Source: a virus | Taxonomy: Duplodnaviria; Heunggongvirae; Uroviricota; Caudoviricetes | Direction: 5' to 3' (one strand) | Length of the DNA: 64,000 nt | Virus record (IMG/VR): IMGVR_UViG_2565956713_000001 | In this document: positions 10,877 to 63,821 of the stretch, one piece after another | Layout of the letters: every line of letters starts with the position of its first letter | How positions within the stretch are numbered: the first letter of the stretch is position 1 | Position numbers and translations under genes: made by a program | The notes under the pieces: generated by a model | What the model saw: only the letters and a program-made list of their open reading frames with translations | Database searches by the model: none | Told to the model about the DNA's origin: nothing

Positions 10877-11059
10877 GTATTTTTAAGTCGCGAATGCTAT
10901 CTTTTCGCATCATATTGACCTTTTAATCGTTCAGGCTTATAGTTCCGCCGTCGTAGCAAATTCTGCGACCGGGTTTAGCAGCCTGAATGATTGTGCGGAC
11001 AGCCGCAGATATCCGATATTGCGGTATTTTTGTGTCCGTAAAACCGCGTTACGCCCAAA

Positions 11060-11140
11060 TTATGGTGGGGCGTGATGGGGAGGCTTCGGCCTGCTGGTTT
11101 CACAATCGCCAGTCTGCTAACCCCGTCACGTCCTGCCACC
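11060..11140 (+). ncRNA. c4-like antisense repressor RNA (approximate boundaries)
   Basis: ORF-free leader between operator and icd. Short elements (CACAATC, CTGCTAA) are complementary to GTTTAGCAGC / TGATTGTG, which occur twice, the second copy overlapping the icd ribosome-binding site. Confidence 0.3.
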
Positions 11141-11190
11141 TGTTTAGCAGCGGGTAGCAGGTTGTTAAACCTGATTGTGAGGCCGTAACT

Positions 11191-13446: not shown

Positions 13447-14292
13447 ATGCTGGCTAAAGTCACTTTCCTGAGCTGTATAACGATGAGCGATTTTACTTTT
13501 TCTGGCTATGAATTGGCCTTCTTTGTAACACACTCCGGTCTATCCCGTAGCGCCGGGCATATCCTGTCGCAATGTGCAAATCTCGCGGCAACAACCAGTG
13601 AATACTTCATTCACAAGCCCCACCGCCTGATCGCGGCAGAAACTGGTTATAGCCAATCAACCGTCGTTCGTGCATTCCGTGAAGCTGTAAACAAAGGAAT
13701 TCTATCTGTAGAGATTGTTATCGGCGATCACCGTGAACGTCGCGCTAACCTGTACCGGTTTACACCATCCTTTTTGGCCTTCGCACAACAAGCCAAAAAT
13801 GCGCTGATTGAAAGCAAATTAAAGATCTCTTCAGCGGCAACCAAGGTTAAAGCTGTTCTCGCTAAGACATTGGCTTTATTTAATTTTTTATCCACACCCC
13901 CATGTCAAAATGATACCCCCTCCCCATGTCAGGATGACGTGGCAATAAAGAATAAGAAGTCACAAGTTAAAAAAACAAAAAGATCAGTTTCCGGCGGTGC
14001 CGGAACGATCAGACTCAAAAAATTGACTTCATGGATCGCTGAGACAAAAGCAAAGGCTGACAATCTGCGGTTATCCAAAAAACGCGCACAAAAACATGAG
14101 TTCAAGCAGAAAGTAGAGGCGGCAGCGCGGAAATATGCTTACCTGAAGAACAAGCGTTCTCCTGATATTGGCGGGGTATCAAACTTCGATAATCTGCCGC
14201 ATTGCATGACGGTAAACGAAGCTCTTAATGCGGTTTTAGCCAAAAATAAAGATAACGAACAATGGGGTATACCGGCAGGATTCAGAGGGTGA
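13447..14292 (+). CDS. repL: lytic replication protein RepL
   Basis: 281 aa, the length of P1 RepL, following kilA under the Op53-like operator; an alternative start at 13483 is possible. Confidence 0.6.
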   Translation: MLAKVTFLSCITMSDFTFSGYELAFFVTHSGLSRSAGHILSQCANLAATTSEYFIHKPHRLIAAETGYSQSTVVRAFREAVNKGILSVEIVIGDHRERRANLYRFTPSFLAFAQQAKNALIESKLKISSAATKVKAVLAKTLALFNFLSTPPCQNDTPSPCQDDVAIKNKKSQVKKTKRSVSGGAGTIRLKKLTSWIAETKAKADNLRLSKKRAQKHEFKQKVEAAARKYAYLKNKRSPDIGGVSNFDNLPHCMTVNEALNAVLAKNKDNEQWGIPAGFRG

Positions 14293-14588
14293 TAGATTGC
14301 TCTAATCTGGAGTCACCTGGCGTTTTCAGTTTGAGGTCGGAGATGCAATCTGATTTTTTACAGTTAGCGATCGCTTTTGCAGGATATGTTTGTATTGGCT
14401 TCTGTGTATACATGATCAGCCGAAAAATGCTTGTCGATATCGACCGCAAAGAACAAGCAGAGGAGATCTTAGTATGGATTTTCTTTGGCGCGGTCTGGCC
14501 ATTAGGGATCATGTTTGCTGCAACATTTCTTCTGATGTGGATATTCACCCTTCCTGGTGATTTCTATAGAAAAAAAGCCAGACATTGA
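14262..14588 (+). CDS. small membrane protein (putative; likely start near 14343)
   Basis: Two predicted transmembrane helices. Confidence 0.3.
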   Translation: MGYTGRIQRVIDCSNLESPGVFSLRSEMQSDFLQLAIAFAGYVCIGFCVYMISRKMLVDIDRKEQAEEILVWIFFGAVWPLGIMFAATFLLMWIFTLPGDFYRKKARH

Positions 14589-14711
14589 TACAATCGTTGC
14601 GGGTGCTTGAGGCTATCTGCTTCAGGCATTACCCGAAAAGCAGATAGAAGAAAGCCCCAGATAACATCACGCGTCCTGCAAGACGCTTAACATTAATCTG
14701 AGGCCATATCT

Positions 14712-14918
14712 ATGCTTAGCATACGTAGATTAGCCTCTTACCGACCAAAAGGTCAAGGAGAAGCAGGCTATGAAGCAGCAAAAAGCGATGTTAATCGCTC
14801 TGATCGTCATCTGTTTAACCGTCATTGTGACGGCACTGGTAACGAGGAAAGACCTCTGCGAGGTACGAATCCGAACCGGCCAGACGGAGGTCACTGTCTT
14901 CACAGCCTACGAATCTGA
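14712..14918 (+). CDS. mok: Mok-like overlapping reading frame of the hok locus
   Basis: 68-aa ORF that overlaps the hok frame out of phase and starts 58 nt upstream, as in hok/mok/sok loci. Confidence 0.4.
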   Translation: MLSIRRLASYRPKGQGEAGYEAAKSDVNRSDRHLFNRHCDGTGNEERPLRGTNPNRPDGGHCLHSLRI

Positions 14919-14925
14919 AAGGTAA
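14770..14925 (+). CDS. hok: Hok/Gef-family membrane toxin (type I toxin-antitoxin)
   Basis: 51-aa ORF MKQQKAMLIALIVICLTVIVTALVTRKDLCEVRIRTGQTEVTVFTAYESER, near-identical to HokD/HokC as I recall them; below the ORF-track size cutoff. Confidence 0.8.
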   Translation: MKQQKAMLIALIVICLTVIVTALVTRKDLCEVRIRTGQTEVTVFTAYESER

Positions 14926-15004
14926 GAGACCTGGCGGGGAGAGATCTCCGCCACTCTTCGTGTGTCAGGTATCCTCAATGCACCCTTTCCTCTCCAAATA
15001 AAAA

Positions 15005-15024
15005 AGCTCCCGAAGGAGCTTTAA
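15005..15024. terminator. bidirectional intrinsic terminator
   Basis: Hairpin AGCTCCCGAAGGAGCT flanked by A-run and T-run, between hok (+) and the convergent structural operon (-). Confidence 0.5.
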
Positions 15025-15041
15025 AATACAAGGGATGACTC

Positions 15042-15551
15042 TTAATCCCACTCAATCCAGTTGTAGACGATACGAAGTGACGGGCGCACAGCGGCAGTCA
15101 CATCTTCGGTACTAAAGTCGATTGCATCACTGTAGATTTTGCAGTCCAACATTTCAATTGTTGTAGCAGCTTTTGTCACAGCGTTAACCCCGGAAGATTT
15201 GGATTCAGGGGTCGCAGCCATCGTGATATCAACATAGTCCTTCGCCGCAATGCGATCCTTGATGAACTGAAGAATATCGCCTTCGATAGTCTCCACGCAC
15301 TGGACCTGGATTTCCCCAGAGTTTCGAATTGGTCCGTGCTGGTTGAACTTCACACCATTCGGACCATAGTCCTCCACATCCTCGCGGGTCATTTCAGGAA
15401 TTTGCGACGTGCGAACCAGTACGCTGATATCTTCATGGCCTGCAAAAGTGAGCTGGAATTCAGAAGATACCAGTCGTTCGCCTTTGGCCGCGTTGGCAGT
15501 ATAGCGGCCCTTAATAAATTTACGGTTTCCCTTAGTGTTATTGTGCCCCAT
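15042..15551 (-). CDS. phage structural protein (tail-tube-sized)
   Basis: 169-aa ORF, last gene of the minus-strand capsid/sheath operon. Confidence 0.3.
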   Translation of the reverse strand: MGHNNTKGNRKFIKGRYTANAAKGERLVSSEFQLTFAGHEDISVLVRTSQIPEMTREDVEDYGPNGVKFNQHGPIRNSGEIQVQCVETIEGDILQFIKDRIAAKDYVDITMAATPESKSSGVNAVTKAATTIEMLDCKIYSDAIDFSTEDVTAAVRPSLRIVYNWIEWD

Positions 15552-56986: not shown

Positions 56987-57208
56987 ATGCAATCCATTAA
57001 CTTCCGTACCGCGCGTGGCAACCTTTCTGAAGTGCTCAACAATGTTGAAGCCGGGGAAGAGGTTGAAATCACCCGCAGAGGCCGTGAGCCAGCAGTAATT
57101 GTCAGCAAGGCTACTTTCGAAGCCTACAAAAAAGCGGCGCTGGATGCTGAATTTGCATCCCTGTTTGACACCCTGGACTCCACCAACAAGGAACTGGTTA
57201 ACCGATAA
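56987..57208 (+). CDS. phd: antitoxin Phd
   Basis: 73 aa from ATG at 56987 (ORF track begins 2 codons earlier at a GTG); palindromic GTGTACAC operator half-sites upstream; stop overlaps doc start. Confidence 0.9.
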
Positions 57209-57588
57209 TGAGGCATATATCACCGGAAGAACTTATTGCGCTTCATGATGCGAATATAAGCCGCTACGGCGGCCTGCCGGGAATGTCTGATCCGGGTAGG
57301 GCAGAGGCCATTATCGGGAGAGTTCAGGCCAGAGTTGCCTACGAAGAGATCACCGACCTTTTCGAAGTCTCCGCCACCTACCTGGTGGCTACAGCGAGAG
57401 GGCATATATTCAATGATGCCAATAAGCGTACCGCGCTAAACAGTGCGCTGCTATTTCTACGCCGTAACGGGGTGCAGGTATTTGATTCACCTGAACTGGC
57501 AGACCTTACTGTAGGCGCTGCGACTGGCGAGATATCTGTATCTTCTGTCGCCGACACGTTACGTAGATTGTATGGTTCTGCGGAGTAG
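57208..57588 (+). CDS. doc: toxin Doc (Fic-fold kinase)
   Basis: 126 aa immediately after phd, the classic phd-doc operon. Confidence 0.9.
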
Positions 57589-62168: not shown

Positions 62169-62487
62169 TGTTTTTTGACTGCCGATGTTACATTGAACCT
62201 GACCTCTTGCGCCTTGAGGCATTTTCGGTTTATGCTTATCAGGCACCTCATTAAAACGGGTGCCGGGATTGGCCTCCCGCTTAAGTCTAAGGCGATACAG
62301 ACGCCGCTCGCGTCTTTTTTTTGTATCGGCGTACACGCACACCTCTACAATGGTGGGCTGTATGGGGCTACCTTCGGGTAGGCTGGTTACCTTGGACGCC
62401 AGTAAGGCCAACTCCGTACAGTCCACCGCCAGCAAGATTGGTCTCTTCTGCGGTGGTTACATACCAACGTCTAAGGAGGCTGCCAAT

Positions 62488-62709
62488 ATGGCTACTATCC
62501 CTACCCCAACTCATCCTGTATTTATCTGGCGCTTTTACTCCTGCCAAAAACGTCACTATCACTTCGTTATTGCACCGACAGAAGATGAGGCCCGCTCTCA
62601 GCTTCCTGACGCCCCATGTATTTTCTCTGCCCGTTTTTCCACTGATTCACGCAATTCTCTCAGTTACTGGTGCCTCCCTGTTAACGCTTCTGCTCAGGAG
62701 GGACTATGA
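62488..62709 (+). CDS. Icd-like protein, second copy (73 aa)
   Basis: Internal Met with AAGGAGG ribosome-binding site inside ORF 62260..62709; ~70% identical to the 11191 Icd-like protein; stop overlaps the ant-like start. Confidence 0.55.
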   Translation: MATIPTPTHPVFIWRFYSCQKRHYHFVIAPTEDEARSQLPDAPCIFSARFSTDSRNSLSYWCLPVNASAQEGL

Positions 62710-63821
62710 GAACATCGTTAGTTACCCGTGAAGAGATGATCGAGGCAATTGAACAGCACACTGCCTGTATCAGTACCAGGGATATACCAGGCGTTATTGC
62801 CAACTACTTCATGATCACCAAACAACTTTACCGGAGAAAGGACAAGAACGCTGTTCACCGTATCCTGCTGTCTGATATCCGTGAATACCTGCTCGAACAG
62901 GGGCATCTGAATTACGCAACCGTCGCAGCCGAAACACGCAAGGAGGCACACAGAATGAAAGCTACTAACGTTAAATCTGAAAAAATTAATACACCTTTAG
63001 TTCAGGAATCAGAACTGGTGGTTGTTCAAAGTCAGCCGGATGAAATTCCCGTTCTAGAGTGGCAGGGAGTGCGTGTAGTGACAACTAAGATCCTTGCTAA
63101 GGGGTATGGGACAGATGCGGATAACATCAAGAAGAACTTTTCCCGTAATGCTGAACGTTTTTGTGAAGGTAAGCATTTCTATAAAGTTATTGGAGATGAT
63201 TTGAACAATTTGCGGGTGACTTTAAGTAACTCACAAAATCCTATCTCTCCTAAAGCCCGCTCACTCATCCTCTGGACGGAACGCGGCGCAGCCCGCCACG
63301 CTAAAATGCTCGAAACCGATCAGGCATGGGCATTCTTTGAAAAACTGGAAGACAGCTACTTCCGGCAAAAAGAACAGCAACCGGTTGCAATCCCCCAGAC
63401 GCTTCCAGAAGCTCTGCGCCTGGCTGCCGAACTGGCTGAACAAAAGCAGCTTCTGGAACAGAAAGCCCACCAGCTAAATCAGCAGCTGGTGGCCGCCGCT
63501 CCTAAAGTCGATTTTGCCGACCGGGTATCAGTAGCTAAAGGGATCCTGATTGGGAATTTTGCAAAGGTCGTTGGACTTAAACAAAATGCGCTGTTTGCCT
63601 GGTTACGGGAGAACGGCATCCTGATAGCGTCCGGTGGACGTAAAAATGTGCCGTTCCAGCAGTACATCAACGCGGGGTATTTCACGGTGAAAGAAGTGGT
63701 GCTGGATGATGAAGATGGCTACCAGATACGGTTGACGCCTCAATTAACGGGTAAAGGCCAGCAGTGGTTGACGCGTAAACTGCTCGATGCTGGCTTGTTA
63801 AAACCGGTGGCGGCTGAATAA
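62706..63821 (+). CDS. antirepressor Ant-like protein, second copy
   Basis: 371 aa; N-terminal ~90 aa and C-terminal KilAC domain homologous to the 11409 Ant; central domain differs. Confidence 0.65.
   Translation: MRTSLVTREEMIEAIEQHTACISTRDIPGVIANYFMITKQLYRRKDKNAVHRILLSDIREYLLEQGHLNYATVAAETRKEAHRMKATNVKSEKINTPLVQESELVVVQSQPDEIPVLEWQGVRVVTTKILAKGYGTDADNIKKNFSRNAERFCEGKHFYKVIGDDLNNLRVTLSNSQNPISPKARSLILWTERGAARHAKMLETDQAWAFFEKLEDSYFRQKEQQPVAIPQTLPEALRLAAELAEQKQLLEQKAHQLNQQLVAAAPKVDFADRVSVAKGILIGNFAKVVGLKQNALFAWLRENGILIASGGRKNVPFQQYINAGYFTVKEVVLDDEDGYQIRLTPQLTGKGQQWLTRKLLDAGLLKPVAAE

Follow-up and report, generated by a model that had tools for sequence, protein, structure and literature searches.

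The mechanism of the hok family has been understood since the 1990s, and its archetype, the hok/sok (parB) locus of plasmid R1, kills plasmid-free cells after segregation. The locus described here lies in a P1-like plasmid prophage represented by a stretch of 64,000 nucleotides (the window; IMG/VR record IMGVR_UViG_2565956713_000001). Its closest experimentally studied homologue is hokW-mokW-sokW of the Stx2 phages (933W and Sakai prophage 5, Sp5), which shares ~88% nucleotide identity with the window over positions 14589-14985 and 92% protein identity in the toxin (47 of 51 residues). HokW has been found by experiment to be toxic and to be located in the inner membrane, and sokW has been established experimentally as its antitoxin, with a promoter that can be mutated (PMC8621323). 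The two loci agree in tac, fbi, the 3' hairpin, and the Sok hairpin as well as in promoter positions but differ in their setting, because hokW of 933W resides in an integrated lambdoid prophage with unrelated flanking genes, whereas the locus in the window belongs to a plasmid prophage.

Two other described loci are close in name or in architecture. RefSeq names the toxin ORF after hokD (relF), which is located in the Qin prophage of Escherichia coli K-12. The Hok of a chromosomal E. coli locus (L009), which we take to be HokD/RelF of K-12, is identical to that of the window in 48 of 51 residues (94%) but ends in AVFTAYEPEE instead of TVFTAYESER; the two loci also differ in the frame of mok, and hokD is part of a chromosomal defective prophage and not of a P1-like plasmid. 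An IncFII locus encoding the classic 52-aa Hok has the same architecture as the window, with a leader, a GAGG mok site, a hok ribosome-binding site, a GC-rich hairpin, and fbi, and the distance from +1 to the hok ATG is alike in both (~168-169 nt), although the Hok of R1/IncF plasmids has just 42% protein identity to that of the window and blastn yields no alignment of the nucleotide sequences.

Compared with these systems, the locus in the window is very probably (at a probability of roughly 0.85) an intact hok/mok/sok type I toxin-antitoxin cassette in both its identity and its molecular mechanism, the latter by homology to the hok family. An earlier note on this DNA had arrived at the same reading, and the toxin ORF, mok with a Shine-Dalgarno sequence of its own, a predicted sok gene, covariation between tac and fbi, and a 3' hairpin were all found (Table 1). 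The locus is real but ordinary, as RefSeq already gives the toxin ORF the name hokD in its identical plasmid records, which number in the hundreds.

Table 1. Features of the cassette and its immediate surroundings, with positions in the window and the basis of each assignment.
Feature	Position	Strand	Basis
Replacement segment with orf81 and the hok/mok/sok cassette	14307-14999	.	blastn against NC_005856; P1 annotation
orf81, small hydrophobic protein	14343-14588	+	PHROG 3772 (E = 3e-54); RefSeq WP_001369095.1, hypothetical
Predicted hok promoter: -35-like TAGAAA 14567-14572, 16-nt spacer, extended -10 TGaTACAAT 14586-14594	14567-14594	+	Promoter scan
Predicted full-length hok mRNA	14601-14990	+	5' end at position 1 of the RF01794 model
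tac element GGGTGCTTGAGG, 5'-terminal in the hok mRNA	14601-14612	+	Pairs with 14973-14985 in the fold
Predicted Sok antisense RNA, ~71 nt	14650-14720	-	Coordinates transferred from annotated sokW of 933W
ucb-like alternative tac partner AAAGCCCC	14651-14658	+	RF01794 consensus pairs GGGUGCUU with AAAGCCCC
mok: Shine-Dalgarno GAGG 14700-14703, 68-codon ORF 14712-14918	14700-14918	+	ORF list; PHROG 37205
Predicted sok promoter: -35 TTGACC 14756-14751, 18-nt spacer, -10 TAATCT 14732-14727	14727-14756	-	Homology to sokW
hok: Shine-Dalgarno GGAG 14757-14760, 51-codon ORF 14770-14925	14757-14925	+	PF01848; identity to RefSeq hokD
GC-rich hairpin GGCGGGGAGAGATCTCCGCC, in the interval from the hok stop codon to fbi	14933-14952	+	Paired in full-length and truncated folds
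fbi element CCTCAATGCACCC, matches tac in complement except for a bulged T	14973-14985	+	Fold, duplex, and covariation
P1-backbone hairpin AAAGCTCC-TTCG-GGAGCTTT, then TTTATTT	15003-15022	-	Terminator scan, minus strand only

The toxin, mok, and Sok

The product of the 51-aa ORF (MKQQKAMLIALIVICLTVIVTALVTRKDLCEVRIRTGQTEVTVFTAYESER) matches all 42 positions of the Pfam model PF01848 (HOK_GEF; E = 2.4e-22, 78.7 bits against a cut-off of 22) and also the 'MokW-like host killing' family PHROG 251 (E = 4.9e-32), in support of its previous identification, with exactly these coordinates, as a Hok/Gef toxin. Its scores for the NCBIfam models of a Hok subfamily (NF007279; 49.5 bits) and of the HokA equivalog (NF007290; 38.1 bits), which stand for other branches of Hok, are below the respective curated cut-offs of 73 and 89. 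In RefSeq records of plasmids with identical DNA, the ORF is labelled hokD by PGAP (WP_001313475.1), a label that presumably rests on near-identity and not on the NCBIfam HMMs. The description of the locus as unannotated in the earlier note is therefore correct for mok and sok, which are both missing from the RefSeq annotation of identical plasmids, but not for the toxin ORF. Annotated without mok and sok, the locus gives the impression of an orphan toxin.

The 68-aa ORF that had been placed in the position of mok, out of frame with hok, matches PHROG 37205 (E = 8e-21). It begins 58 nt 5' of the hok ATG and is read in the +1 frame compared with hok; the start corresponds by homology to that annotated for mokW, and both the start codon and the ribosome-binding site keep their position among the relatives. 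The frame of mok was compared over 33 aligned leaders, comprising the window and 32 others. The arrangement of the window recurs in L007, L008, L027, and L029, whereas hokW and 21 others have mok and hok in one frame, with the mok start 57 nt upstream of hok (48 nt in L043); in the remaining 6 of the 33 leaders, no mok ORF was called. The shift to the +1 frame is caused by an extra T (14753) relative to 933W, where mok starts in frame, 57 nt upstream of hok; the same T yields the sok -35 sequence TTGACC instead of the TTGCCT of 933W. The mok of R1, too, had been expected to be out of frame. A description of the frame in the window as 'R1-like' was nevertheless dropped, because mok is in frame in the IncFII locus with the 52-aa Hok.

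An antisense RNA resembling Sok had been expected opposite the mok start, and the alignment with sokW predicts one within the proposed range. The putative Sok starts with a short 5' tail that faces the mok start; a long hairpin (14654-14704) and a U-rich tail (UUUCUUCUAUCU) follow. Its predicted fold has a free energy of -34.5 kcal/mol (z = -5.4), and the base of the hairpin contains three compensatory pairs among the 33 aligned sequences. The sok promoter was placed via homology to sokW and via the primer (YO-421) used to mutate the -10 sequence of sokW (TAACCT) in a 'pro-less' construct, which aligns with the predicted -10 of the window. The consensus promoter scan called the promoter of hok and missed that of sok, because the -10 sequence TAATCT fits the consensus at just 3 of 6 positions.

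The leader (14601-14775) matches the Rfam family RF01794 'sok' with 112.2 bits (cut-off 59; E = 6e-26); like the matches of the toxin ORF, this one greatly exceeds what chance would give. The match is on the plus strand, which might seem in conflict with a Sok encoded on the minus strand, but this objection was dropped, as the matches in related loci (all of the 40+) are also on the sense strand of hok and end at the hok AUG. RF01794 therefore represents the leader of hok, and the complement of Sok is part of that leader.

Structure and 3' end of the hok mRNA

The predicted hok promoter has 9 of 12 consensus matches and a TG ahead of its -10 sequence, whose position is kept in 933W (TAGAAT). 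In the minimum-free-energy fold of the full-length RNA (-153.2 kcal/mol; z = -7.7), the closing helix is formed by the pairing of tac at the 5' end with fbi at the 3' end. The tac-fbi duplex has a free energy of -21.0 kcal/mol (RNAduplex), compared with a mean of -13.2 kcal/mol for shuffled sequences, and only 1 of 200 shuffles was equally good.

There is also comparative evidence for this pairing. Across the 33 aligned sequences, the tac-fbi helix shows a compensatory change from U-A to C-G, with 99% of cells paired; columns 4 and 408 of the alignment hold U-A in 20, C-G in 10, and U-G in 3 of the 33 homologous loci. In the formal count, 94% of cells were paired and ten pairs changed on both sides, a level reached by none of 500 shuffles, and sliding the partners against each other lowered the fraction of paired cells to 38-48%. 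The duplex is present 340-382 nt from +1 in the relatives tested, among which GGGT...ACCC switches to GGGC...GCCC, and the homology with other hok loci stops exactly at fbi (14985). An exception is L019, in which no fbi-like partner for tac was found and which has an insertion after the 3' hairpin. The alternative helix between tac and ucb of the RF01794 consensus was absent from the fold of a 3'-truncated hok RNA, which formed another 5' hairpin.

The GC-rich hairpin downstream of the hok stop codon is paired in 97% of the cells of the 33 aligned sequences, again with compensatory changes, and presumably serves as the stop for 3' trimming of the hok mRNA. It is also a recurrent hot spot for insertion of IS186/IS421 in related plasmids. 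In pUTME-8-1, IS421 is flanked by a 10-bp duplication at ~14937-14946, and an insertion of IS186B has been reported for pSvP1 (PMC6906374).

The hok mRNA is predicted to end directly past fbi, or possibly at the hairpin at 15003-15022. A terminator hairpin had been suggested at ~15005, and a hairpin is indeed present there, but it falls within the homology to P1 that starts at 15000, and only the minus strand has the T-run. This identifies it as a terminator of the P1 backbone that follows the convergent bplB operon and lies outside the cassette, and it was ruled out as a terminator of the cassette's own, although it may stop hok transcription as well. The terminator scan found no good intrinsic terminator on the plus strand 3' of fbi. 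By contrast, fbi of the IncFII locus is followed after 6 nt by a terminator hairpin that belongs to that locus, whereas the nearest hairpin in the window, that of the P1 backbone, lies 18 nt downstream.

The sequence data directly show membership of the family, the two ORFs, the covarying RNA elements, how the locus is embedded, and how common it is. Transcription and processing of the window's copy, its toxicity, and its biological role are what we infer, and the mechanism would follow that of the family. Transcription from a promoter that is weak and constitutive (extended -10 sequence at 14586-14594) would produce a stable hok mRNA of ~385-420 nt from G14601, which would be closed and not translatable as long as tac is paired with fbi. 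Slow trimming of the 3' end to the hairpin at 14933-14952 would free tac, and the freed leader would refold and expose the site at which ribosomes bind to mok (GAGG at 14700, ATG at 14712). Sok, which would be short-lived and transcribed from 14720 to 14650, would pair with the mok region and block the translation of mok, and with it that of hok, which would be coupled to it; the duplex would be marked for RNase III. Upon loss of the plasmid or of sok transcription, Sok would decay first, mok and hok would be translated, and the 51-aa Hok would enter the inner membrane and cause cell death.

A variable slot beside the lytic replicon

In a blastn comparison of the window with reference P1 (NC_005856), homology stops at 14306 and starts again at 15000. 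The intervening 693 bp stand where reference P1 has 1,826 bp with rlfA, rlfB, and pmgF; its annotation between repL and bplB lists Orlf and these three genes and has no hok, as the earlier note had supposed for P1. The cassette occupies a variable slot, with the kilA-repL lytic replicon on one side, as had been claimed, and the tail gene bplB on the other.

The hok layout of the repL-bplB slot is present in 262 of ~516 P1-type plasmids in PLSDB and is the commonest among those counted; the cassette was found in the same context also in 235 of 5,426 complete E. coli genomes, and many plasmids have copies that are 100% identical to the locus of the window. The cassette at this slot is thus a common layout of P1-like plasmids and not an oddity of one element. 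Reference P1 represents a minority type at the slot, whereas most P1-like plasmids counted have both hok/sok and phd-doc, a pairing that bears on how resistance-spreading P1-like plasmids persist. No study devoted to hok in P1-like phage-plasmids came up in a literature search, in which the only relevant items were a passing mention (PMC6906374) and a description of the variable region (PMC9603915). The presence of 'two ORFs including an antibacterial toxin' in place of rlfA-rlfB-pmgF has already been noted (Venturini et al. 2019).

The nucleotide homology to hok loci of lambdoid prophages and chromosomes spans exactly the transcription unit (14589-14985), which would agree with a selfish or decaying passenger that recombined into the slot from such a locus and is of no current benefit. 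Such a passenger would be heading to inactivation, as are the IS-flanked copies of hok in the chromosome of E. coli K-12. In many sister plasmids, IS421 or IS186 in the 14933-14952 hairpin splits fbi from hok; the same IS end adjoins a chromosomal hokC-like locus. Some sister plasmids have lost hok, and one variant retains just the first 147 bp, with the promoter, leader, and sok. Because the module is interrupted or lost in so many sister plasmids, it must be dispensable for the element. The copy in the window, however, shows neither an IS nor a frameshift: the two reading frames are unbroken, tac still matches fbi in complement, and sok has kept its promoter and hairpin. As this intact form is also the commonest layout counted, a passenger without benefit is very unlikely.

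Selected role of the cassette

In a low-copy plasmid prophage, the main selected role of the cassette would on balance be post-segregational killing, and the element would thus have one more addiction module in addition to phd-doc. The presence of phd-doc on the same element had been anticipated, and it lies within the window at 56987-57585. The two modules have the same presumed role in addiction to the plasmid prophage but are unrelated in sequence and differ in kind, since phd-doc is a type II system with a protein antitoxin and a toxin of the Fic family, whereas hok/sok combines an antisense RNA with a membrane peptide.

The main rival to post-segregational killing is a role of the same module in aiding or timing lysis when the plasmid prophage is induced, as in the case of HokW of Sp5: induction would remove Sok, and the Hok then made would damage the membrane early and let more progeny out. 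hokW-sokW, the only close homologue tested, has been tied to lysis on induction and not to plasmid stabilisation; sokW was gone after treatment with mitomycin C, HokW was seen ~1 h ahead of the endolysin, and deletion of hokW-sokW halved phage release (PMC8621323). The location of the cassette directly downstream of kilA-repL-orf81 and on the same strand also fits such a role, as read-through upon induction would meet sok transcription head-on. Nevertheless, a terminator-like hairpin (14545-14560) separates orf81 from the hok promoter, the two-fold effect of HokW is modest, P1 already has lysis control genes of its own, and not only reference P1 but also ~100 related plasmids do without hok. 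Selection for lysis is therefore unlikely, albeit a serious contender.

Abortive infection, a defence against phages that would serve the host and the plasmid together, has also to be considered. A lytic phage that stops host transcription would cause the decay of Sok, and Hok would kill the cell before the phage has finished. On a high-copy plasmid, hok/sok of R1 reduced the plating efficiency of T4 by 42% and its plaque size by ~85%, as cited by Takada et al. (PMC8621323). Defence as the selected role of the cassette is nonetheless highly doubtful, as the effect on T4 is weak and stems from a high copy number, and evidence of the present type does not separate defence from addiction.

The core of the C1 operator Orlf (ATTGCTCTAAT) is kept at 14296-14306, immediately ahead of the replacement segment, and argues in the same direction as the lysis data of Sp5. 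The cassette might even be wired to the lysis-lysogeny switch of P1-like phage-plasmids, instead of or besides serving in addiction: derepression of the kilA-repL-orf81 genes, which C1 represses, would drive transcription head-on into the sok promoter, and the interference would lower Sok and release Hok at a set time. Such wiring, which is improbable, would explain both the loss of sokW on induction of Sp5 and the frequent presence of hok in a slot beside the lytic replicon.

The small hydrophobic protein encoded by orf81 has tblastn matches confined to P1-like phages. Its gene accompanies the cassette in P1-like elements; hok loci elsewhere occur without it.

A probable type I toxin–antitoxin module downstream of repL

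A canonical hok/mok/sok module is the best-supported reading of the locus between repL and bplB, to judge from its sequence elements. The observation of the earlier note is confirmed, and its hok/mok/sok interpretation is supported. The 51-aa ORF that had been proposed as toxin gene is present at 14770–14925 (+); its product, MKQQKAMLIALIVICLTVIVTALVTRKDLCEVRIRTGQTEVTVFTAYESER, indeed belongs to the Hok/Gef family, matching the full Pfam model HOK_GEF (E = 2.4e-22; 78.7 bits, cut-off 22) and also PHROG 251 (“MokW-like host killing”, E = 4.9e-32). The 68-aa ORF described as overlapping it lies at 14712–14918 (+) in the +1 frame; its start precedes the ATG of hok by 58 nt. No second hok-like locus was found in the 64-kb window.

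Features of the cassette and its flanks
Feature	Position	Strand	Details
kilA, repL	13447–14292		Upstream of cassette
orf81	14343–14588		Small hydrophobic protein; PHROG 3772; RefSeq WP_001369095.1
hok promoter (predicted)	14567–14594	+	Scan: TAGAAA, 16-nt spacer, TACAAT preceded by TG
hok mRNA start (predicted)	G14601	+	6 nt downstream of −10; Rfam model position 1
tac	First 12 nt of hok mRNA	+	GGGTGCTTGAGG; complementary to fbi
mok	ATG 14712	+	Shine-Dalgarno GAGG 14700–14703
sok promoter (predicted)	14756–14727	−	TTGACC 14756–14751, 18-nt spacer, TAATCT 14732–14727; homology to sokW −10
hok	ATG 14770	+	Shine-Dalgarno GGAG 14757–14760
3′ GC hairpin	14933–14952	+	GGCGGGGAGAGATCTCCGCC; after hok stop codon
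fbi	14973–14985	+	CCTCAATGCACCC; complementary to tac, one bulged T
bplB	15042–15551	−	Downstream of cassette; followed by pmgG and gene 21

The fold of 14601–14990 reaches −153.2 kcal/mol, compared with −109 ± 5.7 kcal/mol for shuffled sequences (z = −7.7), and its closing helix is the 5′–3′ pairing of tac with fbi. The hairpin at ~15005 that had been taken for the terminator of the cassette is present (15003–15022), but it is part of the P1 backbone, has its T-run on the minus strand, and serves as the terminator of the convergent bplB gene. In the plus-strand direction, the sequence behind the hairpin is UUUAAAAU, so that it is a poor intrinsic terminator for that strand. The hok locus of an IncFII plasmid has a hairpin of its own 6 nt after fbi, suggesting that the P1 hairpin, 18 nt past fbi, may serve the same purpose.

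The expected antisense Sok RNA is predicted at 14650–14720 (−) by alignment to phage 933W, in which sokW, mokW, and hokW are annotated. Its predicted structure is a long hairpin (14654–14704) flanked by a UUUCUUCUAUCU tail and, at the 5′ end, by a short tail that faces the mok start (−34.5 kcal/mol, z = −5.4). The putative −10 element of sok is homologous to the TAACCT of sokW, which was mutated by Takada et al. (primer YO-421) to silence sokW (PMC8621323). A consensus promoter scan of the region did not call the sok promoter, which is weak by consensus alone.

The Rfam model RF01794 (“sok”) matches 14601–14775 (175 nt) with 112 bits (gathering score 59). Nearly all scanned loci gave a match, in each case on the sense strand of hok and with its end at the hok AUG. 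The model is therefore written on the strand of the hok leader, which explains why the match in the window seemed to be on the wrong strand. The “sok antitoxin” match at 14601–14775, like those in the comparison loci (L003, L007–L052), marks the hok leader and not the direction of Sok transcription, a convention that could mislead automated strand assignment.

Conservation of RNA elements and of the mok start

For comparison, 47 loci encoding Hok relatives were fetched from species-representative genomes of Escherichia, Shigella, Kluyvera, Citrobacter, Photorhabdus, Pantoea, Erwinia, and other genera. When +1 is set at model position 1 of RF01794, nucleotides 1–13 pair with sequence 340–382 nt downstream in the loci tested, except in the chromosomal hokC-like locus L019, which has an insertion after the 3′ hairpin and in which no fbi-like partner was found. 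In Photorhabdus and Pantoea, tac starts with GGGC instead of GGGT and fbi ends with GCCC instead of ACCC; in a MAFFT alignment of 33 sequences, the tac–fbi pair between alignment columns 4 and 408 is U-A (20), C-G (10), or U-G (3). Across the five helices counted on this alignment, 94% of the cells are paired, compared with 38–48% when partners are slid by 1–3 columns; 10 pairs changed on both sides, and covariation as high as in the real alignment was not seen in any of 500 shuffles. The window thus has the conserved RNA architecture of the family, beyond a mere toxin ORF. CRISPR-DR4 repeat matches lie just upstream of hok in two of the comparison loci (L048, 50–197; L050, 162–189; Erwinia sp., Kalamiella sp.), so that the hok/sok copy adjoins a CRISPR array in these genomes.

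The mok start is conserved in position, but the peptide is not. In 21 of the 32 other aligned leaders, including those of hokW and of a chromosomal locus that we take to be hokD (L009), mok is in frame with hok and begins 57 nt before it, as in the IncFII locus, which encodes the classic 52-aa Hok; in L043 it is also in frame, 48 nt upstream. The “Mok” of such loci is an N-terminally extended Hok. The window carries an extra base (T14753, within GGTCAAGG) that places mok in the +1 frame and turns the sok −35 element from TTGCCT into TTGACC. The same base is present in two loci with almost the same leader and a Hok 98% identical to that of the window (L007, L008). The mok of L027 and L029 is in the +1 frame as well (55–56 codons), and a mok-like ORF was not called in six loci of the aligned leaders. 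A conserved start without a conserved peptide agrees with the accepted idea that what counts is translation through the start of hok and not the Mok product.

Junctions with the P1 backbone

The window is a P1-like phage-plasmid, which also carries a C4 antisense RNA, three tRNAs, and phd-doc (56987–57585). In agreement with the earlier note, P1 has no hok at this position: homology with the reference (NC_005856) breaks off at 14306 and returns at 15000. The intervening 693 bp replace 1,826 bp of P1 that comprise rlfA, rlfB, pmgF, and the greater part of the C1 operator Orlf. The left junction lies inside Orlf (Op55, 14296–14312), whose core ATTGCTCTAAT (14296–14306) is kept and whose six 3′ bases differ (CTGGAG in the window, TATAAC in P1). 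The retained core suggests that orf81 may still be controlled by C1.

The replacement segment consists of two parts, orf81 and the hok cassette. The former was found only in P1-like elements, where it accompanies the cassette, and is absent from hok loci elsewhere; its homolog in SJ46 is 44% identical. The orf81 stop codon overlaps the TG of the extended −10 of hok. Nucleotide homology with the hok loci of lambdoid and Rac-type prophages (87–91%) is confined to the transcription unit (14589–14985), beginning at the −10 of hok and ending with fbi.

Elsewhere in the window, the stretch 62243–63821 between pacB and c1 holds a second pair of isrK and C4 antisense RNA (62243–62433), followed by icd/ant-like ORFs; RCS47, JL22, and vB_EcoM-673R5 show the same placement. 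Since 10937–11143 holds the immI C4 of the reference type with its a1/b1 targets, two immI-like modules for antirepressor control seem to be present in the element.

Distribution, putative role, and disrupted variants

Among the 516 PLSDB plasmids with a P1-type repL, 262 have the uninterrupted arrangement repL-orf81-hok-bplB (coverage of at least 80%; many 100% identical) and about 100 the reference arrangement rlfA-rlfB-pmgF, which belongs to the eight highly variable regions of P1-like phage-plasmids (Zhang et al. 2022; PMC9603915). The hok arrangement is also present in 235 of 5,426 complete E. coli genomes. In reference P1 (L002, 3296–3592), pmgF is annotated with a putative morphogenetic function; its absence from the window and from the 262 plasmids of the same layout suggests that it is dispensable.

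The claim that the locus is unannotated holds for mok and sok but not for the 51-aa ORF, which RefSeq lists as hokD, “type I toxin-antitoxin system toxin HokD” (WP_001313475.1); GenBank phage records label it “MokW”, “hypothetical protein”, or not at all. The finding is correct but ordinary: both the family and the variable slot are known, and the toxin is already annotated in identical public records. Venturini et al. (2019) had already noted that rlfA-rlfB-pmgF is substituted by two ORFs, one of them for an antibacterial toxin. What databases lack for this locus is mok and sok; a literature search retrieved no paper analyzing or testing hok/sok in a P1-like phage-plasmid.

From homology, we infer the entire mechanism: the hok mRNA would be stable and self-closed until activated by slow 3′ trimming, labile Sok would block translation of mok and thereby the coupled translation of hok, and when Sok is no longer replenished, the Hok membrane peptide would kill. 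For a low-copy plasmid prophage, the most likely role would be post-segregational killing alongside phd-doc. The main rival is a role like that of HokW, with loss of Sok on induction, early membrane damage, and the release of twice as many phage; this rival merits attention, since the C1-controlled lytic replicon lies directly upstream of the cassette. Phage exclusion ranks below both.

Another lesser alternative to post-segregational killing is that the cassette is a decaying selfish passenger; the copy in the window is uninterrupted. In a large group of sister plasmids, the match ends at 14946, where an IS186-like element or IS421 follows; 10 bp (~14937–14946) are duplicated, and the insertion lies inside the 14933–14952 hairpin between hok and fbi (comparison locus L005, 4358–5698). 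In many P1-like plasmids, this GC hairpin is a recurrent target of IS186/IS421, whose insertion separates fbi from hok. At the corresponding hairpin of the hokC-like locus L019, the adjoining sequence is the same IS end. In pF1140-3 (L006, NZ_OY754380.1, 2501–2647), only the initial 147 bp of the query cassette are kept (promoter, leader, and sok); homology with the window runs to 14738, and a 198-aa ORF on the opposite (minus) strand replaces hok, leaving an apparent orphan sok.
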